From an uncultured Acidimicrobiales bacterium (GTDB taxonomy: Bacteria > Actinomycetota > Acidimicrobiia > Acidimicrobiales > Aldehydirespiratoraceae): DNA of 64,000 nucleotides. The notes under the pieces were generated by a model. That model had not been told where the DNA came from. It did not search any database and saw only the letters and a program-made list of their open reading frames with translations. Location of the stretch: positions 3,636 to 67,635 of the forward strand of contig CATOTC010000004.1 in NCBI GenBank assembly GCA_951812975.1. Reading direction: 5' to 3'. Below are positions 14,225 through 39,119 of the stretch, piece after piece (positions within the stretch are counted from its first letter, which is position 1; the number at the start of each line of letters is the position of its first letter). The position numbers and the translations under genes are program-made.

Positions 14225-15667
<1,443 letters not shown>

Positions 15668-15774
15668 TGCACAACACTCCTAAAGAAACAACGGGTATCA
15701 GCGGGCGGGGGTCGACTGACACCATCTCTGCGCAGCCCGCACGCCCAGCCTACCGGCCCTAGGGCCTGCCGGCT

Positions 15775-16962
15775 CTATGGTCCGGAGTCGGTGCCGGGAC
15801 CAACCCCCGCGCGGAACACGGTTGCGGTGCCGGCGAGGTTTGCAGGGCCCTCGGAGGCCGCCATCCAGGCCGCTGCGCCCCGTCCGAGGGGGTGAGAACC
15901 GGCTCGACTCTCTAAACGCGCATTGCCTGAAGTACACAGCAGGATGGCGGGGCCCGGCTCGATCCGTGCATGGCCGTTGAGGTCGATCCTCTGCAACGAG
16001 AACTCATCGACCGGACTCCGGTAGCTGACCACCCCGTCAACAGCTGACGGCCGCTGAACGTCAACTGTCATCGGGTCGGTTTCGACAATGTCGAGCAGCG
16101 TCCCCACATCCACGTGCTTGCTCGTCAGACCGGCGCGCACAACATTGTCGGAACTGGCCATCACCTCCACACCCGTGCCCCGCAGATAGCAGTGCAGGTT
16201 GCCCGGTCCGAAGAAGATCGACTCCCCCGGCTGCAGCGTCACCAGATTCAACAGCAGAGCGATCAGCACAGCGGGGTCCTGGCGATACCGGCGGCCGAGA
16301 TCGCCCACCACCTGCCGTTCCGCTGCGAACGGCAGCGAGGACCGCGCGGCGCACGCAGCAACCACAGACCCCACCAGATCCGCAGTCGCCTGTCGATCCT
16401 GCCGCAGCAGCCACTCCAGAAGGCCGCCGATACCATTCGGCGTCGGCTCCGCAGTGAGCCTCGCCCTGATCGGATCAAGAGCAACAGTCGGGACAGTCCC
16501 AAGCAGTTCAAGCGTCTCGGTCGGTTCACGGAATCCGCACAGAGCGCTGAACTCGCTGAGCGCGCAGATCAACTCCGGTTTGTGGTGCCGATCACGGAAA
16601 CAGCGGTGCTCGCCGTCCCGGTCGATTCCCAGGGACTCCTCGCGTTCGTATCCCCTTCGGGCCTGCTCGGTCGACGGATGCGTCTGCAACGAGAGCGGGG
16701 CGTCGGCGGCCAGCACCTTCAACAGGAAGGGAAGCGAACCGAAACGGTCTGCCACCGTGGCACCCAGCGCCGCGCGGCGGTCGGCGTCGATGTGTTCATC
16801 AAGACGGACACCTGACCCGCGCAACTCCGCCGACCCTGCCCAATGCGCTCCGAACCACACCTCCGCAACGGGCTCACCTGTCCCACGCCGGCCCAGCAGC
16901 TCAGGGATCGCGGTCGGCGAGCCCCAGTCGTAGTTCTTCAGCGCCCCGTCGATCAACACCAT
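15775..16962 (-). CDS. manA: mannose-6-phosphate isomerase, class I
   Basis: PLSLQTHPS metal-site block and cupin architecture; 395 aa. Confidence 0.85.
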   Translation of the reverse strand: MVLIDGALKNYDWGSPTAIPELLGRRGTGEPVAEVWFGAHWAGSAELRGSGVRLDEHIDADRRAALGATVADRFGSLPFLLKVLAADAPLSLQTHPSTEQARRGYEREESLGIDRDGEHRCFRDRHHKPELICALSEFSALCGFREPTETLELLGTVPTVALDPIRARLTAEPTPNGIGGLLEWLLRQDRQATADLVGSVVAACAARSSLPFAAERQVVGDLGRRYRQDPAVLIALLLNLVTLQPGESIFFGPGNLHCYLRGTGVEVMASSDNVVRAGLTSKHVDVGTLLDIVETDPMTVDVQRPSAVDGVVSYRSPVDEFSLQRIDLNGHARIEPGPAILLCTSGNARLESRAGSHPLGRGAAAWMAASEGPANLAGTATVFRAGVGPGTDSGP

Positions 16963-17127
16963 GGTCGGATCCCAGACTCGTCAACCGGTGAAGTCATGCG
17001 CCAGCCCGGAGCTGACAGCCGCGGCCAGCACCAACAGGTCCAGCATCTGGCGCGACAGTCACCTCACGCACTTGGTTCGGAAGACGGCTCACCGCACCGA
17101 GCAGTCCCAAAGAAGGCATGGCTGCAC

Positions 17128-17367
17128 TCAGTTCCGGGAAGTCTCCGCGACCCCGTCCGTCTCGGCTTTGGCGAGCAGGCGGGAATGCTCCTGTGAATTC
17201 ACATCGCTTGCTTCGTCGGGCAGCATCACCGGAATGTCACCCTCATGGATGCGATAGAGCTTCTGAAGGCGCGGGTTGTACAGCACTGATTCGTCGGCGA
17301 AATAGAGCAGCGGGCCGCGGTCGATGGGGCAGACCAGAATCTCAAGGAGGCGGATATCGAGGGTCAT
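17128..17367 (-). CDS. Trm112-family small protein
   Basis: 79 aa with LLEILVCPIDRGPL and GDIPVMLPDEA signatures. Confidence 0.75.
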   Translation of the reverse strand: MTLDIRLLEILVCPIDRGPLLYFADESVLYNPRLQKLYRIHEGDIPVMLPDEASDVNSQEHSRLLAKAETDGVAETSRN

Positions 17368-17409
17368 GTGTCCCAGTCAACCAGAAAACTGCCCGCACAC
17401 AGACAACGG

Positions 17410-18753
17410 TCAGGCGAACAGGGCGAGGACTTCATTGACACGAACGTCAACCTCGGCTTGAGTGCCTGCTTCGAGGTTGAGACGAAGCAGCGGCTCGGTG
17501 TTCGAGGGACGCAGATTGAACCACCAGTCACCGAGATCGACGGTCAGCCCGTCCATTCGGTCCACCGAGGCGCCGGCGAAGGCACGGGCAACCCTTTCGA
17601 TCACCGCGGCGGTGTCGTCCACCCTGGTGTTGATCTCTCCCGACGCGGCATAGCGACCGAGCGACGACACGAGGTCCGAGAGCCCGGCTGGATGCCGCCC
17701 CAACGCTTCAAGCACTACGAGCGCGGCGATCAGCCCACTGTCGGCGCCAAAGTTGTCACGGAAGTAGTAGTGCCCCGAATGTTCACCACCGAAAGCGGCC
17801 CCGGTCTGGAGCATCACCTGCTTGATGAACGAATGGCCGACCCGCGTTCGAACGGGTGTTCCACCGCCCTCGGCAATGACCTCGGGCACCGTCTTGGAGC
17901 AGATCAGGTTGTGGACGATGGTCGCGCCCGGCTGACGCTCCAGGATGGAGCGGGCAACCAGCGCGGTGGTCAACGACCCGGACACAGCCCTGGCGTTCTC
18001 ATCGACGAGGAACACCCGGTCTGCGTCGCCGTCGAAAGCCAGACCGATGTCGGCACCGTCGCGCAGAACCCTGGCCATCAAGTCTCTGCAGTTCTCGGGC
18101 TGGATCGGGTCAGCCGGGTGGTTCGGGAACGTGCCGTCGAGTTCGGGATATATGTGGTCGAGTTCAAATGGCAGCCCAGCGAACACTGCAGGGACCACCA
18201 GACCGCCCATTCCGTTGGCCGTGTCGGCCACCACCCGCAGAGGTTTCAGGGCATCGAGGTCGACGAAGGAGTGCACATGGGGGACGTATCCAGCAAGCAG
18301 GTCAAGCTGCGTGAGCCGCCCCCGCGTGCCGACAGGATCGGGGCCCGAAATCGCCATCTGCTTGATCTCGGAAAGTCCCGAATCAGAGCCGATGGGCGCT
18401 GCGCGGGCGAGGCACATCTTGATTCCGTTGTAGCCCGCCGGGTTGTGCGAAGCCGTGAAGACGGCCCCTGGGACTCCCAGGTGACCCGACCCGTAGTACA
18501 GCATGTCGGTGGCGCACAGACCCACATCGACCACGTCGAGCCCGTGGTCCATCGCCCCCTGCGCGAAGGCAGCCGCCATCTCCTCGCCGTCAGGCCGCAT
18601 GTCGCGCCCCACGAGAATCGAGGTATCGCCCCGGTTCCGGACGAATCGGGCGAACGCCCCGCCGATGGCTCGGGATCCGTCAGTGTCGAACTGGTCCGGG
18701 ACGGTGCCGCGAATATCGTAAGCCTTGAAGATCGTGTCGAAGTCTGTGCTCAC
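17410..18753 (-). CDS. manB: phosphomannomutase/phosphoglucomutase
   Basis: Phosphoserine loop TASHNPAGYNGIK and metal loop FDGDADR. Confidence 0.92.
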   Translation of the reverse strand: MSTDFDTIFKAYDIRGTVPDQFDTDGSRAIGGAFARFVRNRGDTSILVGRDMRPDGEEMAAAFAQGAMDHGLDVVDVGLCATDMLYYGSGHLGVPGAVFTASHNPAGYNGIKMCLARAAPIGSDSGLSEIKQMAISGPDPVGTRGRLTQLDLLAGYVPHVHSFVDLDALKPLRVVADTANGMGGLVVPAVFAGLPFELDHIYPELDGTFPNHPADPIQPENCRDLMARVLRDGADIGLAFDGDADRVFLVDENARAVSGSLTTALVARSILERQPGATIVHNLICSKTVPEVIAEGGGTPVRTRVGHSFIKQVMLQTGAAFGGEHSGHYYFRDNFGADSGLIAALVVLEALGRHPAGLSDLVSSLGRYAASGEINTRVDDTAAVIERVARAFAGASVDRMDGLTVDLGDWWFNLRPSNTEPLLRLNLEAGTQAEVDVRVNEVLALFA

Positions 18754-18823
18754 ACCACGAAACTAAACCGCGAAATCCCTTTTGGGACATTCGACTGCCG
18801 GCCGCCCGACAGATTGCTGGGCG

Positions 18824-19723
18824 TCAGTACTTCTCAGGTACGAAAGTCTGATCCGACATCGGCGGCCGCACATAGCCCACAGCCGACTGTTTCTCGGGCA
18901 GCTCAACTTCCTCCCACGGGACCGGTTCGTAGGGGATCTGCGACAGGAGGTGAGAAATGCAGTTCAGTCTGGCCCTCTTCTTGGAGTCGGCGTTGACCAC
19001 ATACCAGGGGGCCTGCTTGATGTCGGTGTGGGCGAACAGCGTGTCCTTGGCCTTCGAGAAGTCCACCCAGCGCTCTCTGCTCTGCAGATCAACCGGTGAC
19101 AGCTTCCAGCGCCTCAACGGATCGGAGATTCGACTCTGGAAGCGGGCCTCCTGTTCTGCGTCGCTGACCGAGAACCAGTACTTGATCAAGATGATCCCCG
19201 AGCGGACGAGCATCCGCTCGAACTCGGGGCAGGACCGCAGAAACTCGCGGTACTCCTCATCAGTACAGAAGCCCATCACAGGCTCAACCAGACCGCGGTT
19301 GTACCAGCTTCGGTCGAACAGCACCATCTCCCCCGCCGCCGGCAACTCGGCCACATAACGCTGGAACCACCACTGGGACTTCTCCCGGTCGCTCGGCGTG
19401 CCGAGCGCCACGACCCGAACGACCCGGGGGTTGAGCCGTTCAGTTATCCGCTTGATCACTCCACCCTTGCCAGCGGCGTCACGTCCTTCGAAGACGACAA
19501 CCACCTTGAGGCCCTTGTGGCGGATCCACCGCTGCAATAGCACCAGCTCCTCCTGTAGGAGGGCCAGCTCGCGGTTGTAGACCTTCGTCTTGATCTTCTT
19601 CGGTATCGCAGGTTCCGATTTGAGGGACTCCATCTCTATGGGAGTCCGCTGCTCGTCCATGCTGCCAAGACTAGCCGAGGACAGGATCGCAGTCTCGGGT
19701 GAAGACGGATGAGTTCGGCTCAC
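18824..19723 (-). CDS. ppk2: polyphosphate kinase 2
   Basis: PPK2 Walker-like FEGRDAAGKGG and FDRSWYNR. An alternative start at M22 (19660) is possible. Confidence 0.9.
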   Translation of the reverse strand: MSRTHPSSPETAILSSASLGSMDEQRTPIEMESLKSEPAIPKKIKTKVYNRELALLQEELVLLQRWIRHKGLKVVVVFEGRDAAGKGGVIKRITERLNPRVVRVVALGTPSDREKSQWWFQRYVAELPAAGEMVLFDRSWYNRGLVEPVMGFCTDEEYREFLRSCPEFERMLVRSGIILIKYWFSVSDAEQEARFQSRISDPLRRWKLSPVDLQSRERWVDFSKAKDTLFAHTDIKQAPWYVVNADSKKRARLNCISHLLSQIPYEPVPWEEVELPEKQSAVGYVRPPMSDQTFVPEKY

Positions 19724-19768: not shown

Positions 19769-20722
19769 TCAAGTGGGAGTGAACTCTTCGACCGCTAGAG
19801 GTGCAAGGTTGTCCAGTTCCGTCACGCCGAGACTCGACTCTTCGGGCAGATCCGGCACCTCGATGTCCCACTCACCGAACAGTCCCTCCAGAACCGACGG
19901 ATCGTCGAACAAGTCCAGAGCGAACAACTCAGCCAACAACCCGGGACCGAGTCCACCGAAGTAACCGTCACCCTCGGCGAACGGCAGCAAATCCGGCAGT
20001 GCCGCACCAGCGCCGAATCCCGGTCCTGGAGAACCGAACCCCCCTGCGTAGCCCCAGCCACCGGGACCTCCGAGCACCACCACAACTACGGGTCCGCTGC
20101 CGGCACCAAAGCCGAAGGTTCTCCCCCAGACATCGCATTCCGATGAGGAACACGGTTTGGCGAAGTAATCCTTCTCGGCCCATTCCCAACGCTTGTCCCA
20201 CTGTTGGTCATAGTCGAACGGACCGTACGGTTGGTCACGCCAGAATCCGTCGAGGTGATCGGCGAGCTCCGAGGGTTCCACGCATTGCAACCATCCGTCG
20301 TCTGAACCCCGCCGTTCGTAGTAGTCATCGTCGTCTGAACCCCGCCGTTCGTAATCTTCGTAGTCGTCTGAATCCCGCCGTTCGTAATAGCCGTCGTCTG
20401 AGTCCCGCCGTTCGTAATAGCCGTCGTCGTATTCGTGCTCGCCATCGTCGTCGGATTCATCGGTGATGGCGGAGACGGCCCACACCGTGGCGACGACGAT
20501 CACCGCGACCAGCAGCGCAGCGAGCACTCCGATCCCGGCCAGCTTTGCGGCGCGATGAGGAGTCAGATGCTCCTTCTGGTCAACAGGCGCCTCCACAGAG
20601 GGCGCGACCGACTCACCCGTCTCGTCGAAAGCGGCGTTCTGCTCTGGTGGCTCAGAGATTTCGCCGTCATTCGACTCCGGCGCGGCAGCGGGGGTCTCCT
20701 CAGGGCTTTCGTCATCTGCCAT
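19769..20722 (-). CDS. single-pass membrane protein with acidic YYERR(D/G)SDD repeats and a Gly/Phe-rich tail, unknown function
   Basis: One TM (LAGIGVLAALLVAVIVVATVWAV) and four repeats. Its start overlaps the upstream gene's stop by 11 nt (ATGGCAGATGA). Confidence 0.6.
   Translation of the reverse strand: MADDESPEETPAAAPESNDGEISEPPEQNAAFDETGESVAPSVEAPVDQKEHLTPHRAAKLAGIGVLAALLVAVIVVATVWAVSAITDESDDDGEHEYDDGYYERRDSDDGYYERRDSDDYEDYERRGSDDDDYYERRGSDDGWLQCVEPSELADHLDGFWRDQPYGPFDYDQQWDKRWEWAEKDYFAKPCSSSECDVWGRTFGFGAGSGPVVVVVLGGPGGWGYAGGFGSPGPGFGAGAALPDLLPFAEGDGYFGGLGPGLLAELFALDLFDDPSVLEGLFGEWDIEVPDLPEESSLGVTELDNLAPLAVEEFTPT
20294..20437 (-). repeat. in-frame 30-33-nt tandem repeats encoding (G/D)YYERR(D/G)SDD x4
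   Basis: Visible in both DNA and translation. Confidence 0.85.
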
Positions 20723-23700
20723 GCGACGAGTCTACGGCCACCGGGTACTGCCCACGTCTGCTGAGACGACTGATCATCGCGGTGTCACGCACAACCCTGA
20801 ACCCGTCTGTCAATGCCCGAACAGTCGAGGAGTCGCTGTTGACGACCCTCACCGGAACCTCGGCGACCGCAAATCCACAGCGTTCTGCCAGATGAAGCAG
20901 TTCGATGTCGAAAGCGAAACCATCGATCCGTCCCGCGGCCATCAGAGTCTTGGCCACATCGGCGCGAAACGCCTTGCAACCGCACTGGGTGTCCCGGTAG
21001 CGGCCGGATAAGACGGTTCGGGCAAAAACGTTCACCGCCCGGCTGCCCATACGGCGCAGACCCGACACGCTGCGGTCAGCCACCGAGAGCTCCGCGTACC
21101 GATTGCCGATCACCACCTCGCAGCCGGCCTCCACCGCGGCGAGCAGTCCCAACAACTGATCCGGCGAGTAGGCCAGATCCGCGTCGGTGAACGCCACAGT
21201 CCGTCCTCTGCTCGCCAGCACGCCAGCGCGGACCGCAGCGCCCTTCCCCTGGTTGGCGGGCAGTTCGATCACCAGGTCGGCTCCCGCCTCGGTTGCCTGT
21301 CGGGCAGTGTCGTCAGGTGATCCGTCATCGACGACCACGATCTCCAGATCGCCGGCGGCGTCCAGAGAATCCAGCTCGGAGCGGATCTCGGAGATCGTCG
21401 ATGCGATCCGCTGCGCTTCGCAATACGCCGGCACCACTACCGACAGGCGCAATTCATCGGTCGGGTCGGCTTCGGCAACCGATCCCTTTGCCAATTCAAC
21501 CAGCGCCGGTTCAGCCTGTGGCGATTCCTGTCCCGATTCAATGAGTGCCGATTCAGCCTGTGCCGATTCAGCCTGTGGCGATTCCTGTGCCGATTCAACC
21601 TGTGCCGATTCAACCTGTGCCGATTCAACCTGTGCCGATTCAACAAGTGCCGAATCTGGGGATCCAGAGTCAGCGGATCCAGAATCAGCGGATCCAGAAT
21701 CAGGGGGATCCTCGGCGTTGAGTGCATCATCGGGCGCTGCAGAACGCGAAGGCACCGCCGCGGTCAGCGCAGTCGGATCCCGGAATGCAGTCGGGCCGTC
21801 ATCGCGGCGATCCCGTTTGCGACGGGTCAACGCGACGGCCAGCACGAGTCCGAGCAGGGTCGCCAACAGACCGATCCACTGCACCGCTGAGCGGGTGTAG
21901 CTCAGACTCACCGATGTCTCGGTCGGCACGACCACCATCAGATTGGGAGCCACTCGGAACGGCCCCTGCGCGCCGGACACCGTCCAGTTGGGAAAATAGC
22001 TGGCCCTCACCAGAACCGGGGTTCCAATCCGGTCCACGCTGAAACTGATCGAATCGTTGTCGACAGCAAGGTCGAACACGTCCGCCGTCCCGGTGGGTAC
22101 TCGCTCGAGCCAGTCCGGCAGAACATCCGCCAACGCGCGCATCTCCGACACCCGTTCGCCGCTGCGGACCGCGGCAGCGAACCCGGCCTCCTGTAGAACC
22201 AGGTCGTCAAGGGACATGCGAGGCCAGTCAGCGGGTCCGTCCGCTGCGATCAGCGGGATCTTCTCTGTGCTCTCCCACGCGGCAACGGTGGGCACCAACC
22301 ACTGCTCCCCGCCCGCTGACAACCCCTCAATCACCACAGGCAACTGCTCGAGACCCACCGCAATCCGTTGATCCTTGACCAGAAAGACCACCCACGGCCC
22401 GCTCGCCGCTATCTCCTCGAACGCTTCGAGCTCGCGCGCCTGGGCAATCGCCGACTCGGACACGGCCAGGTAGTAGCGCACACCGAGGGTCTCAAGCCCC
22501 CCGACGCCCTTCTCCACGTCGAGTCTCGAATACGGAAGGTCGCGCTGGGCGCGAGAGGGGCTCGCCGAAAGTTCCGACTGCAACAGGAAGTGGTAGGGGG
22601 TCGTGGCCGACGCCTCGAAATAGAGTCCCTCCATTGAACCGATACAGCCGTCGGTCCAGTGAGGAAGCAACATCGGTGCCATGGTCGTGCCGTAAGTCCC
22701 GAGACGCTCACTGTCGAACTCCCAGAGCGACCGCCCACAACCGAACTCCTCTCCGACCTCCACCATGGTCGACACCAACTCGTTGTACTCCACAGTCCCC
22801 GATTTCTGCTCGTACCCCGTGAAGTTGTATCTCACCCACCCAGGACCCTGGTTGAACTGGGCCGTCGCAAGACCGTTCCAACCCCGGATCGACTCGATCC
22901 CGAAGAAACTCGAGAAGCCGTAGAGGGTGGTGACTCCACCGGCCGCGTCGGTCCTCTGGAAGGTCGTGGCGAACGGAACGGACCGGAGCGGAAAGGCCAG
23001 GGCGATCAGAATCACCAGAGTGAACAGACCCGCAGGAACCGCCGCCCAGACAGCAGGGGCGCGCGCGCCCGAGCCGCCGGGGTCCAGCGGCGCCGGCCCG
23101 AGCATTCGGATCGCGCCCCGGCTGATCTCGGCCACCGCGATACCGGACAACAGATAGACCGACAGGTAGTAGAATGGCAGGATCCGCACGTTCCAGAGCC
23201 GGCTCTCGGGGAGCAGCACAAAAGCAACCGCGAAGACCGCCGCAACGATCCCCAGGGCGATACCGATCCGGACCCGGCGAAGCGCGCACACCAACGCGCC
23301 GACGACTCCGAGAACCACGAACACCTGCAACGGCAAGTCGTTGACCAGAAAGCTCTGGTTCCCGAGATCATCTCCCCGATGCCAGAGCGCCGCCGCGTAA
23401 CGACGCTCCTTTCCCCAACCCATGTCGTTGAGGTAGGCAACGTTCCACGCAAAGGGCAGCACCCAGAACGCCGACAGCAGCGCGGCGACAGGACCGACGA
23501 CCGCAACCCAGCAGACCTCGCGTCGCCCCACCCGAATGACCAGCAGAGCGAACAACGCCACGAGCGCGAAAAATGCCGCGAACAGGTGCAGCAGGCCGGT
23601 CAGAGCCAGCAACACGGCGGCCACGACCCGGTCTGAACCGCTCGCCAACCCCCGGGCTGCGAAACCGATGAACAGCAGAGCAACCGACAGAGCCAAGCTG

Positions 23701-24635
23701 TAGGCGAACTCGCCTGCCATCGTCGACATCAGATTCCCGCCGTAGATGTTGAACGAACGGTCGAAAATGAATGGCAGGGTCATCAGCGCCATCAGCGCGG
23801 GCCCGGGAAATGCCAGACCGCTCAGACGGCCCGCGAGGAATGCCGACAACGGCAGGCTAACGATCCCCGCGATCACCACCAGTTTCATGGCGACCCCGTA
23901 GGGAGTGGGGACTATCAGGACCGTCGCCACCAACGCGGCGGCAGTGACCGCGGCCCGCCACCGCTCGACCGCAGCGGTGACAGACCATACGAGCGCGCCG
24001 ACCGCTGCCGGCGCCAACAGAGCAGCGATCGCCAGGTCAACGGATGTGTCGTTGAACGTGAAGGGTTCCAGCGGCGACCAGCCCAACCAGTCCGTGACGA
24101 AGACGCGGCCGTCGGCAACCGCCCCGAACAGCGCACTGCCAACACCGAATCCGAGAGCGACAATCACCCTCGAGCTCCGCTCGGCCCAGAACCTGCCGGC
24201 AACGAAGAACACCGCAACCGCGACCCCGAACGCCGAGAGCAGATCGACCGGGATGCCCAGACCGACGTTGACCATCACTATCAGCAGCGAAGGAACGACC
24301 ATGTAGAACGTGAAGGCCGGGAAACCCGCATACCAGTCGGGCGACCAGCCCGTCAACCGGAAGTCCGGCAGCAGCTCGTCACGCAGATAAGCCGGTGACC
24401 ACACATGAGCGCCCAAGTCTCCACCGGTCGGAGTCGTGTCGGTGAACCACAGCCAAGGTGACAGATTCCAAACAACGAACAGAGTGACCCCACCCACAAT
24501 CACCGCGGTGAACGCCGCCTGCACATCGAGGGACCGATCGGTGATCAACCGCCGCCAACCCGGGCGCTGGATCAGCGCACGTCCAGCCTCAGACAGCCGC
24601 GCGAGCGGAATGGGACTGTCGGGGGACGGACTCAT
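20712..24635 (-). CDS. fusion protein: large GT-C-like polytopic membrane protein + repeat linker + C-terminal GT2 (polyprenyl-phosphate hexose synthase-like)
   Basis: N-terminus GGDLGAHVWSPAYL..GWSPDWYAGFPAF with many TMs, a large soluble domain and a final TM. The C-terminal 246 aa carries VVVPAYCE, VVDDGSPDDT, NQGKGAA and FTDADL. Confidence 0.8.
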   Translation of the reverse strand: MSPSPDSPIPLARLSEAGRALIQRPGWRRLITDRSLDVQAAFTAVIVGGVTLFVVWNLSPWLWFTDTTPTGGDLGAHVWSPAYLRDELLPDFRLTGWSPDWYAGFPAFTFYMVVPSLLIVMVNVGLGIPVDLLSAFGVAVAVFFVAGRFWAERSSRVIVALGFGVGSALFGAVADGRVFVTDWLGWSPLEPFTFNDTSVDLAIAALLAPAAVGALVWSVTAAVERWRAAVTAAALVATVLIVPTPYGVAMKLVVIAGIVSLPLSAFLAGRLSGLAFPGPALMALMTLPFIFDRSFNIYGGNLMSTMAGEFAYSLALSVALLFIGFAARGLASGSDRVVAAVLLALTGLLHLFAAFFALVALFALLVIRVGRREVCWVAVVGPVAALLSAFWVLPFAWNVAYLNDMGWGKERRYAAALWHRGDDLGNQSFLVNDLPLQVFVVLGVVGALVCALRRVRIGIALGIVAAVFAVAFVLLPESRLWNVRILPFYYLSVYLLSGIAVAEISRGAIRMLGPAPLDPGGSGARAPAVWAAVPAGLFTLVILIALAFPLRSVPFATTFQRTDAAGGVTTLYGFSSFFGIESIRGWNGLATAQFNQGPGWVRYNFTGYEQKSGTVEYNELVSTMVEVGEEFGCGRSLWEFDSERLGTYGTTMAPMLLPHWTDGCIGSMEGLYFEASATTPYHFLLQSELSASPSRAQRDLPYSRLDVEKGVGGLETLGVRYYLAVSESAIAQARELEAFEEIAASGPWVVFLVKDQRIAVGLEQLPVVIEGLSAGGEQWLVPTVAAWESTEKIPLIAADGPADWPRMSLDDLVLQEAGFAAAVRSGERVSEMRALADVLPDWLERVPTGTADVFDLAVDNDSISFSVDRIGTPVLVRASYFPNWTVSGAQGPFRVAPNLMVVVPTETSVSLSYTRSAVQWIGLLATLLGLVLAVALTRRKRDRRDDGPTAFRDPTALTAAVPSRSAAPDDALNAEDPPDSGSADSGSADSGSPDSALVESAQVESAQVESAQVESAQESPQAESAQAESALIESGQESPQAEPALVELAKGSVAEADPTDELRLSVVVPAYCEAQRIASTISEIRSELDSLDAAGDLEIVVVDDGSPDDTARQATEAGADLVIELPANQGKGAAVRAGVLASRGRTVAFTDADLAYSPDQLLGLLAAVEAGCEVVIGNRYAELSVADRSVSGLRRMGSRAVNVFARTVLSGRYRDTQCGCKAFRADVAKTLMAAGRIDGFAFDIELLHLAERCGFAVAEVPVRVVNSDSSTVRALTDGFRVVRDTAMISRLSRRGQYPVAVDSSHGR
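21496..21712 (-). repeat. in-frame 15-nt tandem repeats in the interdomain linker (ESAQV x4 perfect, plus SGSAD-type units)
   Basis: ctgtgccgattcaac x4 at 21585-21644; gatccaga(a/g)tcagcg units at 21661-21705; degenerate copies upstream. Confidence 0.9.
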
Positions 24636-24724: not shown

Positions 24725-25519
24725 CTAGAGAAGCTGAGCAAGCAGGACGACCACGCTGGTCGCGTTGAATCCCACATGGATCCACAGCGGGGTGCCGAGA
24801 CGGCCTGTCATCTGAAACGCCACCGCGGTGACAATGCCGACCGTCAACAGACCCGGAAACTGGAGAACCTGGAAATGCGACGCCGCAAACAACGTCGAGG
24901 ACCCCAGCACCGCCACAACGGTGCCCACCCGGCCACACCGAGACAGCAACTCTGCAAGACCCCGATGCAGCAGACCCCGATACAGGAACTCCTCGGCAAT
25001 CGGAGCTCCCACCACGGTGAGCACCACCAACGCCAGGATCCCCAGAGACGAATCAGCCGAAGCAACAAGATTCCGTGCCGGAGCCTCGAGCGACTCGCTG
25101 TCGATGAAACGGCTCATCGGCAGATAGACCAGCGGAACGAGCACAACCTGGGTGGCAATCCCCACAGAGAGACCCACGCCAACGTCGCGTCCCGTCATTC
25201 CCCAGCCGAGATCCCGCCGCAGATCGAGCTTGCGGCGCCGGGACAACAGGAACGGAACGCCCACCAGACACAACCACAACGGCACCGTCAGCAACACTCG
25301 AGCCACCAGCGGAACACGCTTGTGGTCAAGGGGAAGCCCGGCCGCCACCTGCCCAGCCACCCGGCCGAAATCGTCGCCCAGACCAGAGGGAACGTCGAAG
25401 GACCAACCCGCTGCACTGACGACAGAGGCGCCGATCAATGCCGACACCACGATCCCTGTCGGAATCGCTACAAGAGCCAGCGCCACCCGACGACCAGGCG
25501 TCGGTGCGCGCTCCGACAC
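24725..25519 (-). CDS. CPBP-family intramembrane metalloprotease (CAAX protease-like)
   Basis: Motifs EEFLYRG, FAASH and HVGFN. Start set at GTG 25519 to avoid overlap with the upstream gene; this is uncertain. Confidence 0.75.
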   Translation of the reverse strand: MSERAPTPGRRVALALVAIPTGIVVSALIGASVVSAAGWSFDVPSGLGDDFGRVAGQVAAGLPLDHKRVPLVARVLLTVPLWLCLVGVPFLLSRRRKLDLRRDLGWGMTGRDVGVGLSVGIATQVVLVPLVYLPMSRFIDSESLEAPARNLVASADSSLGILALVVLTVVGAPIAEEFLYRGLLHRGLAELLSRCGRVGTVVAVLGSSTLFAASHFQVLQFPGLLTVGIVTAVAFQMTGRLGTPLWIHVGFNATSVVVLLAQLL

Positions 25520-25527
25520 CGCCGGTC

Positions 25528-25809
25528 CTAACCAGCCCGACGAAGGCGACCCGACCCGTCGCCCAGCACGGCAGCACCCACCTGCGGTTCGAGGACCGAC
25601 ACCGCAGCACCGCGTCGATCGCTCAACTCCCAACCGCGCGGAGGCCGCGTCCGGTCAGCGTGGGGTGTGCACAGATCGTGGTTGGCGGGTGAATCCTCGA
25701 CATGCAGATCATCGATCCACACAATCTGTTGCGGGTAGAGAAAAGACAGGGTCGCAGCGGCGAGTTGATGACAGCCCGGTCGGGCACAGCGACGGTTCAC
25801 GCTGGGCAC
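25528..25809 (-). CDS. DUF3499-like small Cys/His protein
   Basis: RCARPGCHQLAAATL...DLCTPHADR pattern typical of the actinobacterial DUF3499 family (recalled, not searched). Confidence 0.6.
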   Translation of the reverse strand: MPSVNRRCARPGCHQLAAATLSFLYPQQIVWIDDLHVEDSPANHDLCTPHADRTRPPRGWELSDRRGAAVSVLEPQVGAAVLGDGSGRLRRAG

Positions 25810-28414: not shown

Positions 28415-29956
28415 TCACGGAGCGGCCGCGGGGCGCGGCTCGGCGGCCACGACTCCGGGCAGCAACTGATGCTGGGACACGCCGGTCAGATCCCGGCTGA
28501 CCACCACCGGCGAGCGGGAGACAACCTCCACGATCGGGCGCTCAGATCCCAGTTCTGACGCACGCAGCGAGACCCGCCGCAGCGGAGCCACCTCTATGGA
28601 CGCAACCAGATCGCGACCCCGGTCATCAAGGACCGCCACCTCGACGGTGGCGATCGATTCAGCGGAAGGATTGAAGATCGCAACTGAGTGCGACCCGCTG
28701 CCCAAGGGAGCCAACCATCTCGTTGAGCTCGCGTCCAGGCCCGTGGTTGCGGCCACCGAAACGTTCACCGGCCCAAGGTCCTGTGTCGGCTCGGGATCAA
28801 CCGAATCCCCACCGTCGACCGCTTCGTCGAGGCGAGTCTCGGCGAACAGGTCACTGCTCTCGTGCATCACCGCGATCGGAAGGCCCGTCAACGACCTCGC
28901 AGTAATGCCGTACGAGCCCAGTCCCCTGAGCCTGCTCACGTCGCTCAGACGAACCTGGCTCATGGCGCCGGCAGCGATCGTCAACTCGATCGGGTCACGG
29001 CTCAAGCCCTCCCCGGAGATGATCTCAAGATCAACCTCGGCCGTCTGCTCCGCCGAAGGGTTGACCACACTCACGACATCGAAGCGATCGTTGCTGTCGA
29101 GGTCCAGAAGGTGCCAGACCGGAGCTGTAGTGGATGCAAGCGGTGCAACCGACAAGCCGACAGGAAAATCATGGTCCGCCTGCGTGACGAGACCCTGTGA
29201 CTGCACCCGAGACGCCGCGATCCGGCCGACGACGACATCGATCACCGCGCTCACCCGACTCGCCGCCGGCACCACGTCGGTGACATCGAGGGCAACCACC
29301 CGTCGGGCTGGAACCACCACGCCGTTGAGGGTGTCGACTCCCACGTCGGAATAGAAGCGAATGTCGAGAACCGCATCATGGGGGAAAGGGTTGAGCAGCA
29401 ACAACACCATCTCCTCACCCTTCGTCGCGAACTCAGTAGATCCCGAGGCCACCACCCACAGATCAGAGGTGCGGGTATGACACAGAGCCCGATCAGTGGT
29501 CCCCGATGCACCCAGATAAGTCTGCTCCACGATCACGTCGGCGGAGCCGACCTCAACCACGGCACCCATCCACTCCGAGTCGGCTACGAGGTCCGCCAAT
29601 CGTACGCGGGTACGCCCACCGGCTTCGATCATCACCACGACATCCGTGGGAGCAGCGCCGAGCCCGCTTCGGACCCCCGAGACGAAGGCCTGCACACCCT
29701 CGACCGAGGCATTGATGATCTCCAGGGACACATCGGCTCGCCCACCGGGAGCAGAGCCTCCCGGGCAGAACCAGGTTCCGATCTCTCTGGACGACTCAGG
29801 GACGGAATAAGCAGCCGGAACCACCAACTGTTCAATGTCCCGCCCGAAAACCTCCGAAGCGCCGATCTCGTCCAGCGTGTCTGACCCGTCGAGCAACAAC
29901 GCGGCCGCGAGCACGCAACCGAGCAGCATCGCCACGAACACGCGGGTCAACCTCAC
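28415..29956 (-). CDS. DUF5719-like secreted/anchored protein
   Basis: N-terminal TM then a long beta-rich region. Its GTG start overlaps the upstream stop (GTGA at 29953-29956). Family name recalled from actinobacterial neighbourhoods, not searched. Confidence 0.6.
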   Translation of the reverse strand: MRLTRVFVAMLLGCVLAAALLLDGSDTLDEIGASEVFGRDIEQLVVPAAYSVPESSREIGTWFCPGGSAPGGRADVSLEIINASVEGVQAFVSGVRSGLGAAPTDVVVMIEAGGRTRVRLADLVADSEWMGAVVEVGSADVIVEQTYLGASGTTDRALCHTRTSDLWVVASGSTEFATKGEEMVLLLLNPFPHDAVLDIRFYSDVGVDTLNGVVVPARRVVALDVTDVVPAASRVSAVIDVVVGRIAASRVQSQGLVTQADHDFPVGLSVAPLASTTAPVWHLLDLDSNDRFDVVSVVNPSAEQTAEVDLEIISGEGLSRDPIELTIAAGAMSQVRLSDVSRLRGLGSYGITARSLTGLPIAVMHESSDLFAETRLDEAVDGGDSVDPEPTQDLGPVNVSVAATTGLDASSTRWLAPLGSGSHSVAIFNPSAESIATVEVAVLDDRGRDLVASIEVAPLRRVSLRASELGSERPIVEVVSRSPVVVSRDLTGVSQHQLLPGVVAAEPRPAAAP

Positions 29957-32900
29957 CGCCTGTGTCCAATCACCGGGCGGATTGCAACCACGCCGATCAA
30001 CAGCACGATCGCCGACAGTTGCACGATCAACACCCATCGCCTCCAGGGCGCTGTCAAGTAGTTCAGTTCACCGGTGCCACCATCTTGGGGCACGAAAGCG
30101 GTGGCATAGCCGACTGAATGTCGTTGCGGAGCTCTAGAACCGTCAACTTCAAAGGTCCATGACGGATCCGCGGTCTGCGCCAGGAATACCTCCGTGCCGT
30201 CCGGGATCGAACCCGAGAGGCTGTCACCCCGGCCTGACATGACACCCGCGGTTCCCGATATGGGCACCGCGGCCAGATCCGCGATCTGCTCGACACCACT
30301 GTCGAAACCCGGAGACGCAGCAGCGCGAACCGAAGTCCATTCAGTGTTGTCGTACACCTCGACAGCGCTGTTGATCCCCTCCAGACGCCTCAAGTCGAGT
30401 TGAGACGCAATCGCACCCCGCACACCCGCCGGTATCGAGACCGCATCATCGGGGTCGCTGAAAGGAGCCGGGGCAAGCCGGTCCAGCAACACCACGTAAC
30501 GGACGCCGAGCCCACCGAGTTCCCTTCCCAGACGTATCGTCTCGCCGTTGAGCGCACGCAGAACCGCCTCGGAAACCAGAGGCGCAGCCCCGCCCTCGAC
30601 CGCCGGAAGACGGTCGGACAACCTCGGAAACCCGTCAATGGACGCAACCCAGGCAAGGTCGGCAACCAACGGGCGGCCTTCGGACAGGATGGTTTCGGGT
30701 GATCCGATCCACAGGACTCGATAACTGCCGTCTCGCAACGGGTCGGCGAAGGGCAACACGTCCTCGTAGTCGCCGCGAGGCATCCCCCAACGCCCGGACT
30801 CTGCCAGCGCAAGCGCCGGAATCGAACTGGCCACCGCAGCCACCACCGCCAACGGCAGCAATGCCTGACGCCAACCGAATCCCGCGGCGGGCAGATCGTG
30901 TTCGAACGCAACTATCGCGACACCGCAGGTCAGCGCCACCCCTACTGCCGCGGCCGCCAACAGGACGCTGTCGTCGGGCATGCCGAACGGCAGCCAACCC
31001 AGAGCCGCGACCCACGTCAGACCCCAACTGAGGATCGCCACCGACCAGCCGCGGACCGCCAACTCGAACCGCCATGAACGGCCGGTCAGCATCGGGATGA
31101 CCATCAGAACCCCGAGAGCCCAGACAAAGACCCCCGGTTCGGTCGGCCCGATGTTGAAACTGATGATGTCGCTGAGCGGTATTGCAGAAGCCGAGCCGTC
31201 ACGCCCCCCGGCCAACGGCTCCCAGGTCGCACCGCCGACGAGCTGGTCCACCAGGAAGGGCAGGGCAAGCACCGATACCACCGGCAGAGCCACGACCACG
31301 CAGACAAGCATGCGCAACGTTCCGGAGAGGTTGAAGCTGAGAACCGCCCCGAGCAGCAACCCGGCGACCATCGGAGCCAGGATCAGGCTCGCCGACAGAT
31401 CGAACAGGGCAGTCACACCGACAACCGCACCGATGGTCCCACCGATTGGAACCAACCGATGCCAGGTCTCGTCCGACGAACGCGTCGACCACACCGACTG
31501 TGCTCTCAGCAGCGCCGCGAGCAGCCACGGCGCCAACGAATAGGCATAGACGCCGGCGATACTCGCAGTAGCAAGCGCAGCCCAGGGCAGGGGAATCACC
31601 GCGTACACGAACAGCGAACCAAGCTGAGCCCGCCGAGAGCCCGTGGGCCGGAGCATCCGCCAAGCCCCCACCAGACCCACCACGATCGGCAACAGCACCC
31701 ACAGGGTGCGCACCAGACCCACCGCACCACCCGAGAGGATCGAGAACAATCCGAGCAGACCCACGACACTGGCCCCAGCTCCGGAACTGCCCATGTCACG
31801 CTCCCGCCATCCGCTCCACCACTCGCCGATCATCTCTGAACCTGAACCGCCGAATGGCAGGTAGTCGCCGATCACAGGAACGCCGCCGGCGATCAGCGAC
31901 CGAGAGCCGAACAACACGAACAACCCGATCAACGCCAAGACCACAGCAGAGATCCGGGCCGTGCCCGTACGCATCGCGGACGCCAGTTCCCGGCCCACGA
32001 CGTGCGCCCTGTCCGGACCGAAGCGTCCCCTGATCGCCGCGTTCAACCGCACACTCCCGCCCTGCTGAAGAGCTCGGACGTCGGCATAGCGAGTCCTTCT
32101 CAGACGTCTCAACGCCTTGCGCCGCGAGTGGATCTCCCCCAGACGGGCGACATTCCAGAGCCACGCCCCCCAGATGTCCCGGAACCGGCCGAACCGCCGA
32201 CCGAACAGGGCGACCATCGACTCCCCGAACGAGAAGACCAGCGCTGCCGGCAGCAGATAACACAATGACGGATAACTCGACGTGACCAGCACGGTGCGGA
32301 GTTGGTGACGGGCACCAAGGCGCTCCTCGTCTGTGCTTTTCCGTGTCGAGAGTGCCTGGCGGTGCCGCACTCGGGCATCGGGAACCGCCATCACCCTCGC
32401 TCCGGCCAGTTGTGCCCTGAAACAGAGGTCCACGTCTTCACAGTGGTAGGGCATCTCGGGATCAAAACCGTCGAGGCTCCTGAACAGGTCAGTGCGTATC
32501 AGGATGCACGCCGAGGGCACCGCAAAGACGTCCACGACAGCGTCGTACTGCTCCTGGTCGATCTCTCCGGGATCCACAACCTCGGCAGCCGCGGCGAAGC
32601 GGTCGACAATGTAGGCGACCTGCTGCAACCGGTCGGGATTGTCCCAATCAACCAGCTTCGGACCGACGATCCCAGCGTTGGAACGCAACGACTCAACCAC
32701 GAGCAGCCGCACCGCGTCCGGTTCGGGGGCGATGTCGTCGTGGCAGATCATCAAGAACAAAGGGTCGACATTCGTGTCGAGCAGCGCATTCGCCGCGGCC
32801 GAGAATCCCTCCGTGTCAGACGCATCGAGTACCGACGCCTCCGGCAGAAGCGCCTCCACCCGAGCGGGCATCGACGGATCACCCGCAGCGTCCACCACCA

Positions 32901-33099
32901 TGACCTCAAGACGCGGATAGTCCTGCGTGGCGAGGCTCTCCAAGGTCTCGGAGAACCAGTCACCGGGGGCGTGGGCGACGACCACCGCAAGGACCGACGG
33001 GGTCGTGTCCCGCGCGCCCGACGTCAAGACCTCGGAGCCGGACTCGGTCCCGGTCGCCTGGTCACCACTCAGCAGAGATTGGTCCGTACTGTCTGCCAC
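29953..33099 (-). CDS. GT2 glycosyltransferase fused to a large polytopic membrane domain
   Basis: N-terminal GT2 (VVVAHAPGDWFSETLESLATQDYPRLEVMVVD, CHDD), followed by about 700 aa with many TM segments. Confidence 0.8.
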   Translation of the reverse strand: MADSTDQSLLSGDQATGTESGSEVLTSGARDTTPSVLAVVVAHAPGDWFSETLESLATQDYPRLEVMVVDAAGDPSMPARVEALLPEASVLDASDTEGFSAAANALLDTNVDPLFLMICHDDIAPEPDAVRLLVVESLRSNAGIVGPKLVDWDNPDRLQQVAYIVDRFAAAAEVVDPGEIDQEQYDAVVDVFAVPSACILIRTDLFRSLDGFDPEMPYHCEDVDLCFRAQLAGARVMAVPDARVRHRQALSTRKSTDEERLGARHQLRTVLVTSSYPSLCYLLPAALVFSFGESMVALFGRRFGRFRDIWGAWLWNVARLGEIHSRRKALRRLRRTRYADVRALQQGGSVRLNAAIRGRFGPDRAHVVGRELASAMRTGTARISAVVLALIGLFVLFGSRSLIAGGVPVIGDYLPFGGSGSEMIGEWWSGWRERDMGSSGAGASVVGLLGLFSILSGGAVGLVRTLWVLLPIVVGLVGAWRMLRPTGSRRAQLGSLFVYAVIPLPWAALATASIAGVYAYSLAPWLLAALLRAQSVWSTRSSDETWHRLVPIGGTIGAVVGVTALFDLSASLILAPMVAGLLLGAVLSFNLSGTLRMLVCVVVALPVVSVLALPFLVDQLVGGATWEPLAGGRDGSASAIPLSDIISFNIGPTEPGVFVWALGVLMVIPMLTGRSWRFELAVRGWSVAILSWGLTWVAALGWLPFGMPDDSVLLAAAAVGVALTCGVAIVAFEHDLPAAGFGWRQALLPLAVVAAVASSIPALALAESGRWGMPRGDYEDVLPFADPLRDGSYRVLWIGSPETILSEGRPLVADLAWVASIDGFPRLSDRLPAVEGGAAPLVSEAVLRALNGETIRLGRELGGLGVRYVVLLDRLAPAPFSDPDDAVSIPAGVRGAIASQLDLRRLEGINSAVEVYDNTEWTSVRAAASPGFDSGVEQIADLAAVPISGTAGVMSGRGDSLSGSIPDGTEVFLAQTADPSWTFEVDGSRAPQRHSVGYATAFVPQDGGTGELNYLTAPWRRWVLIVQLSAIVLLIGVVAIRPVIGHRR

Positions 33100-33262
33100 A
33101 ATCGACCGAGGTTACCGCCACTGGCGCTGCGGCGGGTGACGGCGCGGGCGGGGTGTGTTGAGAGCCGGGCCGCTCGGGCCTAGAGTCTACGACGATGCGC
33201 GGTCGACCGGCGAACAACAACGGTGGACCGACCGCTGCGAGCACCGCGAACCGGGAACCGAT

Positions 33263-35177
<1,915 letters not shown>

Positions 35178-35192
35178 GACACGGGGACTGGC

Positions 35193-36826: not shown

Positions 36827-37101
36827 CTCACGCTCTTGTTCGCTGCGCTTGACTCCCGCTCTTGTTCGCTGCGCTTGACTCCCGCTCTTGTTCGCTGCGC
36901 TCACGGGCCGCTTTGGGCCGCGGACGGGCAGCTTTGGGCCGCGGACGGGCAGCTTTGGGCCGCGGCCTCCTTCGGTCGCGCCCGTGCGGGTCAATCCGCT
37001 CGGCCTCTGTTGTCTCCCGCTCTTGTTCGCTGCGCTCACGGACCCTTGGGCCGCTGCCTCGTTCGGTCGCGGCCGTGTGCGGGTCAATCCGCTCGGTCTC
37101 T
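36827..37101 (+). repeat. modular intergenic repeat element, two tandem copies with internal module expansions
   Basis: Module A ctc(a/c)cgctcttgttcgctgcgct at 36827, 36853, 36879, 37014. Module B is a 21-nt unit x3 at 36903-36965. Module C ends ccgctcgg(c/t)ctct at 36996-37008 and 37089-37101. Confidence 0.9.
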
Positions 37102-38113: not shown

Positions 38114-38114
38114 G

Positions 38115-39119
38115 TCAGTCGCTCATCGGGATCTTCAGTCCGTCGACGAGCTGACCGGCACCGACGTTCTGGCCATCGCCGAGGATCGACATGCCGGTGA
38201 TCTTGGCGCCCTCCCCGACACGGGCCCGAGGACCCACGATCGAACCGTCGACGAGGGCATCGGCAGCAATCACCGCGCCACCCATGATGATGCTGTCGCG
38301 CACGACTGCGCCGCCGGCGACGGTCGCGGCCGCCATCACCACTGACCTCTCGACTTCGGCGTCGGCATCGACACTGGCCTCAGGCGATTCGGCGGGCAAC
38401 GCCGCGCCGCGAACGCCGTCGATCAGGTCCAACTGTGCATGCATGTAGGTGGCCGGGGTTCCGATATCGATCCAGTAGGCATCGGAATGCACGGCCCAGA
38501 GGCCGCGCTCGGCAACAATCTCCGGGAATACCTCCCGTTCGATGGAGACCCGGCGGCCGCTGGCGATCCGCTCAAGAATCTCGGGTTCAAGCACGTATAT
38601 TCCGGCGTTGATCCAGTCCGTTGGAGCTTCATCACGGCTCGGCTTCTCGATGAACCCCAACACCCGGCCTTCAGCGTCGGTCGGCACGACCCCGAAACGC
38701 GACGGGTCCTCCACGCGGGTCAGTGCAATCGTGGCCATCGCGCCGAGGGCGTGGTGACGGTCCCACAACGACCCGATGTCGAAATCGGTCAGGACATCGC
38801 CGTTCACGACGATGAACGGCTCGTCTAGGCCCGCCGCATCGGCGGCGAAACGGACCGCGCCGGCCGTGTCGAGCGGTTCCGGCTCAACGGCATAGCTGAG
38901 CGACACGCCGCCGCATTCGGCGTCAGGGTAGGCGGCACGAAAAAGATCCTCCTTGTAGCCCAAGGCGAGGACCACCTCACTGACCCCGGCCCGTTTCAGC
39001 GTGCTGACGACATATTCGATCATCGGGCGGTCCACGACCGGCAACATCTGTTTCGGAGTAGTCACCGTCAACGGTCGCAGCCTCGTTCCGAAGCCACCAA
39101 CCAGTACAACGGCCTTCAT
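38115..39119 (-). CDS. manC: mannose-1-phosphate guanylyltransferase (GDP-mannose pyrophosphorylase-type nucleotidyltransferase)
   Basis: GGFGTRLRPLT signature plus a C-terminal left-handed beta-helix-like region. The sugar specificity is inferred from context. Confidence 0.8.
   Translation of the reverse strand: MKAVVLVGGFGTRLRPLTVTTPKQMLPVVDRPMIEYVVSTLKRAGVSEVVLALGYKEDLFRAAYPDAECGGVSLSYAVEPEPLDTAGAVRFAADAAGLDEPFIVVNGDVLTDFDIGSLWDRHHALGAMATIALTRVEDPSRFGVVPTDAEGRVLGFIEKPSRDEAPTDWINAGIYVLEPEILERIASGRRVSIEREVFPEIVAERGLWAVHSDAYWIDIGTPATYMHAQLDLIDGVRGAALPAESPEASVDADAEVERSVVMAAATVAGGAVVRDSIIMGGAVIAADALVDGSIVGPRARVGEGAKITGMSILGDGQNVGAGQLVDGLKIPMSD

Follow-up and report, generated by a model that had tools for sequence, protein, structure and literature searches.

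A single gene of an uncultured marine Acidimicrobiales bacterium (Aldehydirespiratoraceae; assembly GCA_951812975.1, contig CATOTC010000004.1) encodes a protein of 1307 amino acids (aa) in which a large polytopic membrane region with a predicted glycosyltransferase C-type (GT-C) fold is joined, via a repeat-rich linker, to a cytoplasmic domain of glycosyltransferase family 2 (GT2) that resembles polyprenyl-phosphate-sugar synthases. The gene lies in a stretch of 64,000 nt (positions 3,636-67,635 of the contig; hereafter the window), and the coordinates given below are window positions unless a locus is named, with residue numbers referring to the 1307-aa fusion protein. The fusion is real and conserved, and we see in it a cell-surface glycosylation system of known type in compact form, not a new kind of machine. 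We consider it fairly probable that it is a self-contained, one-chain version of extracytoplasmic glycosylation of the three-component type, a reading in which the two enzymatic activities, the identities of sugar and acceptor and the flipping are all inferred.

The open reading frame (ORF) has a GC content at third codon positions of 0.76, typical of the genes in the window. The first-pass annotation of this DNA had given the coordinates of the ORF and its one intact frame correctly; the strand was corrected to minus. The motifs that it had named for both domains are all found in the translated ORF: TPTGGDLGAHVW (aa 68-79) and GWSPDWYAGFP (aa 96-106) in the membrane region, and VVDDGSPDDT (aa 1101-1110), NQGKGAA (aa 1128-1134) and TDADL (aa 1150-1154) in the GT2 domain. 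The layout that it had described, with a polytopic membrane part, a large extracytoplasmic domain, a final transmembrane helix, a repeat linker and GT2, matches hydropathy, an AlphaFold2 (AF2) model and Pfam. An exact look-up of the 1307-aa protein found nothing on record. The parts of the gene are the following.

20712..24635, minus strand: whole ORF, encoding a putative GT-C-like membrane enzyme, linker and GT2 (ATG start, 1307 aa plus stop, no internal stops).

24534..24635, minus strand: N-terminal cytoplasmic tail, aa 1-34, basic (6 K/R), placed by the positive-inside rule; low predicted local distance difference test score (pLDDT).

22956..24533, minus strand: polytopic membrane core, aa 35-560, about 15 predicted transmembrane helices (the positive-inside rule calls for an odd number), with a GT-C-like fold according to hydropathy, AF2, Foldseek and topology.

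24318..24434, minus strand: signature of the first extracytoplasmic loop, TPTGGDLGAHVW...GWSPDWYAGFP, aa 68-106, with D73, H77, R85 and D100 invariant (conservation).

23706..23765, minus strand: conserved extracytoplasmic loop FDRSFNIYGGN...MAGEF, aa 291-310, with D292, N296 and E309 invariant (alignment, topology).

23400..23429, minus strand: conserved extracytoplasmic loop NDMGWGKERR, aa 403-412 (alignment, topology).

23166..23210, minus strand: conserved boundary of loop and transmembrane helix, PESRLWNVRILPFYY, aa 476-490, with E477, R479 and R484 invariant (alignment, topology).

21894..22955, minus strand: extracytoplasmic soluble domain, aa 561-914, alpha/beta in its first part and ending in a beta-sandwich (hydropathy, alignment, AF2).

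21819..21893, minus strand: last transmembrane helix, aa 915-939, returning the chain to the cytoplasm and followed by RRKRDRRDD (hydropathy, AF2, topology).

21462..21818, minus strand: acidic, Ala/Ser/Glu/Asp-rich low-complexity linker, aa 940-1058, about 119 aa (repeat analysis, comparison).

20715..21461, minus strand: cytoplasmic GT2 domain (GT-A) lacking transmembrane helices, aa 1059-1307, with DDGS and DAD motifs, polyprenyl-phosphate-sugar-synthase-like (Pfam, NCBIfam, PDB).

An AF2 model of aa 1-957, built with 91 homologues as input, reached a pLDDT of 84 and a predicted template-modelling score (pTM) of 0.87, and the modelled N-terminal region has a GT-C-like fold. When the model was compared with the PDB using Foldseek, the best ten matches were all GT-C proteins (AftA, AglB, STT3, ArnT, DPY19 and PglB), with a probability of 1.00 for AftA, STT3 and ArnT; the ranks below the top ten were occupied by unrelated transporters at low probability. 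GT-C enzymes are polytopic, with 8-13 or more transmembrane helices and the N-terminus inside, and here about 15 such helices plus one terminal helix are predicted, likewise with the N-terminus inside. Under this positive-inside topology the inside loops contain 18 K/R in 87 residues, compared with 9 in 141 for the outside loops. The same predicted topology places the 355-aa soluble domain outside and the GT2 domain inside.

About 80 residues of the N-terminal protein are invariant, and they are concentrated in the loops predicted to face outward. All 55 of the 55 invariant residues located in loops fall on the predicted outside, including D73, H77, R85 and D100, the stretch from D292 to E309, NDMGWGK, and E477, R479 and R484, and this exclusively outward placement is the pattern expected for a GT-C active site. 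The signature of the first loop is invariant in 91 of 91 sequences and at least 90% conserved among 44 diverse ones. Within it, D73 (in TPTGGD), which shows the same conservation in both sets, is a candidate for the catalytic aspartate of a GT-C, a class in which a conserved acidic residue is found in the first extracytoplasmic loop (placed here by predicted topology); D100 is also invariant in the 91. The structural matches and the location of the invariant residues together bear out the earlier suggestion that the N-terminal domain is GT-C-like.

The first-pass annotation had also pointed to a link between the N-terminal signature and proteins related to 6-pyruvoyl-tetrahydropterin synthase. 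This link holds at the family level: among 43 diverse relatives scanned with Pfam, 16 match PF10131 (PTPS_related; best E=1.1e-12), two match YfhO weakly and one matches DUF6541, and one relative is annotated by IMG as 6-pyruvoyl-tetrahydropterin-synthase-related. The window protein itself, together with its near relatives, falls below PF10131 detection; PF10131 is the nearest family of the N-domain at the family level only. PF10131, the function of which is unknown, has been linked by HHpred to the GT-C/PMT clan and to STT3, PMT and Alg9-type families (PMC7801869).

The extracytoplasmic domain is acidic, spans 355 aa and contains many invariant residues, for example E639, E669, E674 and H682; modelled alone (aa 556-915), it reached a pLDDT of 90. 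Foldseek found no significant neighbour of this model in the PDB, the best match being AftD with E=0.1, and the domain therefore provides no clue to the acceptor. Its beta-sandwich weakly resembles accessory domains of glycosidases and the C-terminal domain of AglB. The last transmembrane helix is present in unfused relatives too. The linker that follows is encoded largely by 15-bp tandem repeats (21485-21711), and since the repeat unit is a multiple of three the reading frame is preserved. The length of the linker is variable: SYFPNW and DDGS lie 124-191 residues apart in relatives and farther apart in the window.

The GT2 assignment of the C-terminal domain is based on a Pfam PF00535 match at aa 1065-1229 (87.8 bits against a gathering score of 23.3, E=1e-24) and on the DDxS (VVDDGSPDDT) and DxD (TDADL) motifs, which align with those of DPMS (5mlz) and ArnC (8vxh). 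The Pyrococcus DPMS and ArnC entries are also the closest solved structures. Among the NCBIfam models, the best match is the mycobacterial polyprenyl-phospho-N-acetylgalactosamine (GalNAc) synthase PpgS, aligned over positions 4-225 of 226 with 84.7 bits, and archaeal AglJ and dolichyl-phosphate hexose transferase come second and third. The nearest curated families and structures thus agree with the initial view of this domain as a synthase of the polyprenyl/dolichyl-phosphate sugar type. In a sister lineage the GT2 orthologue is encoded on its own, as a protein of 405 aa that begins with a GtrA/DPMS_TM domain, and across the related loci described below 25 separate and three fused copies of the orthologous GT2 have such a domain on their N-terminal side. 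Domains of this type are found with polyprenyl-phosphate-sugar synthases and are not known outside polyprenyl-monophosphate-sugar systems, so that the comparison lends further weight to a polyprenyl-phosphate acceptor. The fusion protein lacks one, and tblastn detected no GtrA homologue in the 64-kb window.

A search with the N-domain returned more than 2000 relatives, and the nearest 21 clusters (at 90% identity) are 65-96% identical to it and 929-1293 aa long. A Pfam GT2 match was obtained for 19 of these 21, which measure 1012-1293 aa and come from independent short- and long-read assemblies. A genome scan, covering one genome per GTDB species, yielded 80 loci, for 84 related loci in all, and a search with the NDMGWGKERR peptide pattern recovered 161 genomic relatives. 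By title, the 80 scanned loci belong to Acidimicrobiia or unclassified Actinomycetota, many of them to 'Candidatus Aldehydirespiratoraceae', with one labelled Gammaproteobacteria. That locus (L035, CAXMSE010000005.1, titled uncultured Gammaproteobacteria bacterium) is 60% identical, has a GtrA-GT2 gene downstream and shows typical Acidimicrobiia synteny; a mistake in binning or labelling probably accounts for its title.

Of the 84 loci, 79 have a GT2 homologue as the next gene downstream and on the same strand, the stop and start codons often overlapping. The five exceptions comprise two loci with the GT2 at a distance of 3.8 kb, one locus that represents a second paralogue of its genome and two on truncated contigs. 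By architecture, the 84 loci are distributed as follows.

Fused without GtrA: 16 loci (plus the window).

Fused, with GtrA between the membrane part and GT2: 3 loci.

Separate, followed at or near the stop codon by the start of a GtrA-GT2 gene: 25 loci.

Separate GT2 without GtrA: 34 loci, 32 directly downstream (mostly with stop/start overlap) and 2 at 3.8 kb.

Single 1677-aa frame of N-domain, GT2 and phosphomannomutase (L071): 1 locus.

Broken and partly duplicated (L004/L007, one genome): 2 loci.

GT2 not detected (second paralogue or truncated contig): 3 loci.

Only 2 of the 150 best family representatives at 50% identity exceed 1200 aa, which shows that the two parts are as a rule adjacent and only exceptionally fused. 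The Rosetta-stone logic invoked at the outset is upheld by this arrangement, the two parts being encoded in unfused relatives by adjacent and usually translationally coupled genes.

The N-domain and GT2 are found in one open frame in 16 species-level genomes, with linkers of differing lengths, and in a neighbour-joining tree of the N-domains the fused loci lacking GtrA, namely those of the 16 genomes and the window, form a single clade. This shared frame, together with the lack of any stop between the domains in the window, confirms a single polypeptide, as had been proposed, as opposed to two frameshifted genes. Other fusions occur elsewhere in the family. In the same tree the combination of N-domain, GtrA and GT2 arose at least twice, the N-domain-GT2-phosphomannomutase fusion (L071:6001-11034) is confirmed by Pfam, and an N-domain joined to phosphomannomutase without GT2 (P0184 cluster; L085:6001-10077) is encoded on several independent contigs, the proteins being 1358-1362 aa long and bearing only the NCBI annotation phosphomannomutase/phosphoglucomutase. 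The tree indicates at least four independent fusion events in the family. Close to the last-named fusion locus, which belongs to another Acidimicrobiales lineage, lies a gene for a 497-aa DUF2079 membrane protein (L085:11656-13149, minus strand).

Two loci of one genome (L004/L007, OZ242337.1, 92% identity) were rejected as fused loci after inspection revealed a broken, duplicated gene. The fusion gene is interrupted in the linker by an in-frame TGA and a frameshift (L004:8700-12567), and the called GT2 ORF reads the linker repeat in another frame. A 5'-truncated duplicate, comprising the last beta-strands, the last transmembrane helix, the linker and GT2, lies about 2.8 kb downstream with 94.6% DNA identity to the first copy. 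As OZ242337.1 is nested inside the fused clade, the break is secondary. The duplicate copy is followed by an ORF of 12360 aa.

In the mechanism that we propose, the C-terminal cytoplasmic GT2 domain would transfer a sugar from a nucleotide sugar, likely GDP-mannose, to polyprenyl phosphate, while the long disordered linker on the last transmembrane helix would keep it close to the inner membrane face. The polyprenyl-phosphate-sugar would then be flipped across the membrane, where the N-terminal GT-C-type domain, helped by the 355-aa extracytoplasmic domain, would use the flipped donor and place its sugar on an acceptor of the envelope, which could be a cell-wall glycopolymer, a lipoglycan or a protein. 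Gene linkage and fusion suggest that the GT-C domain uses a donor linked to polyprenyl phosphate.

Several observations weigh against this proposal. The Foldseek E-values for the membrane region are modest, 1.4e-3 to 6e-2, with target-normalised TM-scores of about 0.4; the fusion protein itself matches no Pfam GT-C model (E<=1) and its N-domain no NCBIfam model, and searches of all PDB chains with the N-domain sequence and with its family profile gave no match. The GT2 domain scores far below the NCBIfam equivalog cutoffs (PpgS 84.7 against 370, AglJ 79.8 against 325, ArnC 50.1 against 529), and glucosyl-3-phosphoglycerate synthase (GpgS) and PglI score within a few bits of DPMS and ArnC; for these two reasons a polyprenyl-phosphate acceptor is favoured but not proven by sequence alone. 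No flippase candidate, sought as a GtrA homologue, is present in the 64-kb window. The broken gene in the close relative OZ242337.1 means that the covalent linkage is dispensable. Finally, the ManA/ManB neighbourhood that bears on the choice of sugar (see below) is common to a wide range of Actinobacteria, and its presence here may in part be a coincidence.

Because the synthase and the GT-C are tethered and GtrA is absent from the fused clade, it is conceivable that the GT-C membrane domain, or its homo-oligomer, itself translocates the polyprenyl-phosphate-sugar, one chain thus making, flipping and using its donor. We regard this extension as improbable; if true, a single tractable protein of this family could serve as a model for how polyprenyl-monophosphate sugars are flipped, a step still unresolved.

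The strongest of the alternatives, although unlikely, is that the GT2 domain is an ordinary cytoplasmic transferase (PglI- or WbbL-like) that extends a polyprenyl-diphosphate-linked oligosaccharide, which the N-domain, as a GT-C of the oligosaccharyltransferase, ligase or polymerase type, would then transfer en bloc to protein or to a polymer of the wall. Many transmembrane helices followed by a large C-terminal extracytoplasmic domain are reminiscent of STT3, PglB and AglB, which are among the top Foldseek matches; the extracytoplasmic domain weakly resembles the C-terminal domain of AglB (3vgp, target-normalised TM-score 0.44, probability 0.28); and for the GT2 domain PglI (9jma, E=7e-11) comes near to DPMS (1e-12). 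However, the top curated matches of the GT2 domain are synthases of polyprenyl-monophosphate sugars, and orthologues are fused to a GtrA/DPMS_TM domain, which accompanies monophosphate-sugar systems. In addition, the conserved synteny places no initiating phosphoglycosyltransferase, Wzx or ABC exporter beside the pair, and an oligosaccharyltransferase motif of the WWDxG type was not seen by eye among the invariant residues.

Less probable still is that the N-terminal membrane protein merely anchors or stabilises a synthase devoid of transmembrane helices and does not use its product. A precedent is provided by the D1 and D2 domains of Ppm1, which are fused in M. tuberculosis and split in M. 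smegmatis, D1 stabilising D2 (PMC3485146), and in the present clade the fusion took the place of GtrA, the membrane domain by which the synthase of sister lineages is anchored. The pattern of conservation argues against such a role, for an anchor needs neither some 80 invariant residues in outward-facing loops, nor a conserved 355-aa domain, nor a GT-C fold; moreover, the membrane protein is kept at loci that have the GT2 at a distance of 3.8 kb or lack it. That two adjacent genes were joined by a sequencing or assembly error in the linker, as its misassembly-prone 15-bp tandem repeats, the stop and frameshift in the linker of the 92%-identical relative and the want of any other record of the exact protein might suggest, is the least likely of the three and indeed very unlikely, because the continuous frame is conserved across 19 clusters and 16 species-level genomes with differing linker lengths, the fused loci form one clade and the broken relative is secondary, a phylogenetic spread to which may be added a repeat unit divisible by three and the absence of both a stop and a start-site signal between the domains in the window.

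The genes around the fusion bear on the sugar that the proposed one-chain system would transfer. In the window, the gene order is a 1048-aa GT2-membrane protein, a 540-aa protein, thioredoxin and FtsH (on the opposite strand), an Rce1-like protease and the fusion gene, continuing with a 317-aa acidic repeat protein, PPK2, phosphomannomutase, mannose-6-phosphate isomerase and S-adenosylhomocysteine hydrolase; a ManC-like guanylyltransferase and a GDP-mannose dehydratase are encoded 9-14 kb from the fusion locus. Unfused relatives retain synteny around the locus. The relevant neighbours are these.

17410..18753, minus strand: phosphomannomutase/phosphoglucomutase of the ManB/PmmA type (612.5 bits against a cutoff of 618).

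15775..16962, minus strand: class I mannose-6-phosphate isomerase, ManA.

38115..39119, minus strand: mannose-1-phosphate guanylyltransferase-like nucleotidyltransferase, ManC-like (below the curated cutoff).

24725..25633, minus strand: intramembrane protease of the Rce1/CPBP type, immediately upstream of the fusion gene (position conserved in L001, L002, L003, L004 and L085).

18824..19723: PPK2 gene, inserted between the fusion locus and pmm.

In relatives, phosphomannomutase directly follows the system or is fused to it, and in one locus (L002) the GT2 gene, though apart from the membrane gene, overlaps the phosphomannomutase gene. Given this overlap, the phosphomannomutase fusions and the nearby genes for a ManB-type mutase, ManA and a ManC-like enzyme, mannose (from GDP-mannose) is the most likely sugar, a choice that we hold at roughly even odds.

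The segments 14225-19723 and 33155-39119 together carry sahH, manA, pmm, a pair of GDP-mannose 4,6-dehydratase/epimerase genes, fbiA (CofD), fbiB (F420 ligase) and the ManC-like gene. This gene set resembles the mycobacterial Rv3248c-Rv3265c region, which suggests an old actinobacterial synteny. The 317-aa ORF (19769-20722, minus strand) begins before the fusion gene ends, with an overlap of 11 bp at the stop, and encodes an acidic N-terminus, one transmembrane helix, some four repeats of the DDGYYERRDSDD kind and a tail rich in Gly; it matches no Pfam family and is absent at this position in L001 and L002. A second large protein combining GT2 and membrane parts (29953-33099, minus strand, 1048 aa) has the opposite domain order, with a cytoplasmic GT2 at aa 34-251, about nine transmembrane helices, an extracytoplasmic domain of about 250 aa and a last transmembrane helix, and gave no PDB sequence match. 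The end of its gene is overlapped by that for a 540-aa secreted or single-helix membrane protein (28415-30037, minus strand), for which no family was found and whose L085 counterpart is annotated DUF5719. This pair of genes is conserved beside the fusion locus in L001, L002 and L085.

The N-domain belongs to a large uncharacterised family (3103 clusters of 50% identity at E<=1e-3) allied to PF10131, with no solved or studied member. The fusions and the near-invariant operon pairing provide the first specific, testable assignment for this family, that of an extracytoplasmic glycosyltransferase of Acidimicrobiia envelopes dependent on a polyprenyl-phosphate sugar, probably mannose. The family also offers a natural series in which the coupling of donor synthesis, flipping and use could be studied, comprising GT-C with GT2, GT-C with GtrA and GT2, GT-C with GT2 and phosphomannomutase, and GT-C with phosphomannomutase, and the single-chain form would be a handy construct for structural work and a model of donor synthesis coupled to use. 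As the logic of the pathway is already well known, these findings should be useful to specialists and are not startling.

Among known systems, the precedent cited in the first-pass annotation was mycobacterial Ppm1. The D1 domain of Ppm1 is known as an anchor of the Lnt/Ppm2 type, and not as a GT-C or a user of the product. The precedent thus stands for the fusion of a membrane domain to a synthase, but not for a membrane half that consumes what the synthase makes. Ppm1 of M. tuberculosis (Rv2051c), the nearest precedent for the fusion, shares with the window protein a DPM1-like synthase without transmembrane helices fused to a polytopic domain, with the two parts encoded elsewhere by split operonic genes (PMC3485146), as well as the likely sugar, mannose; it differs in that here the membrane domain, probably an enzyme in its own right, precedes the synthase, with a repeat linker between the two. 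An Lnt-type anchor identity of the N-domain was rejected, there being no CN-hydrolase/Lnt match in Pfam or NCBIfam and the fold being GT-C-like.

A second actinobacterial system, PpgS (Rv3631), Rv3632 and Rv3779, has described roles in the galactosamine decoration of arabinogalactan (PMC3485146). It likewise combines a GT2 synthase lacking transmembrane helices with a small GtrA-type membrane protein and a large GT-C, and PpgS is the best full-length NCBIfam match of the fusion C-domain. The differences are that its three components are separate proteins, with Rv3779 not adjacent, that its sugar is GalNAc or galactosamine, that the C-domain score is well below the PpgS cutoff (84.7 against 370) and that the fusion N-domain has no detectable sequence relation to solved or curated GT-C families. 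In the GtrA/GtrB/GtrC and CsbB-YfhO/GtcA systems of three-component or multi-component transmembrane glycosylation, undecaprenyl phosphate receives its sugar from a cytoplasmic GT2 and gives it up outside through a GT-C, with a protein of the GtrA family implicated in the flipping in between; the pathway logic is the same and two relatives weakly match the YfhO Pfam model, but the components are separate polypeptides, the GT-C is of another family and no natural GT-C-GT2 fusion is mentioned (PMC11127046, PMC8035078, PMC7389260). Synthase, GtrA and GT-C are encoded together in the sister lineages of the fused clade, whereas the 64-kb window holds no GtrA homologue. Membership in PF10131, which has no member of known function, is silent on donor and acceptor.

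The first-pass annotation had not recognised the arrangement as described, and full-text literature searches likewise yielded neither a description of it nor any reference to DUF6541 or to GT-C-GT2 fusions in nature, a weak negative, with subscription literature and InterPro architectures outside its scope. The fusion protein meets no curated cutoff for a synthase equivalog or a GT-C family and hence stands outside the named families. A final parallel is found in Haloferax volcanii, where AglD, AglR and AglS belong to a pathway in which dolichyl-phosphate mannose is made, flipped and used outside; the archaeal GT2s AglJ and dolichyl-phosphate hexose transferase rank second and third among the curated matches of the C-domain, although this system is archaeal, consists of separate proteins and has an N-glycan as acceptor. 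It is like these systems, with their donor made inside and used outside, that the fusion protein appears to work.

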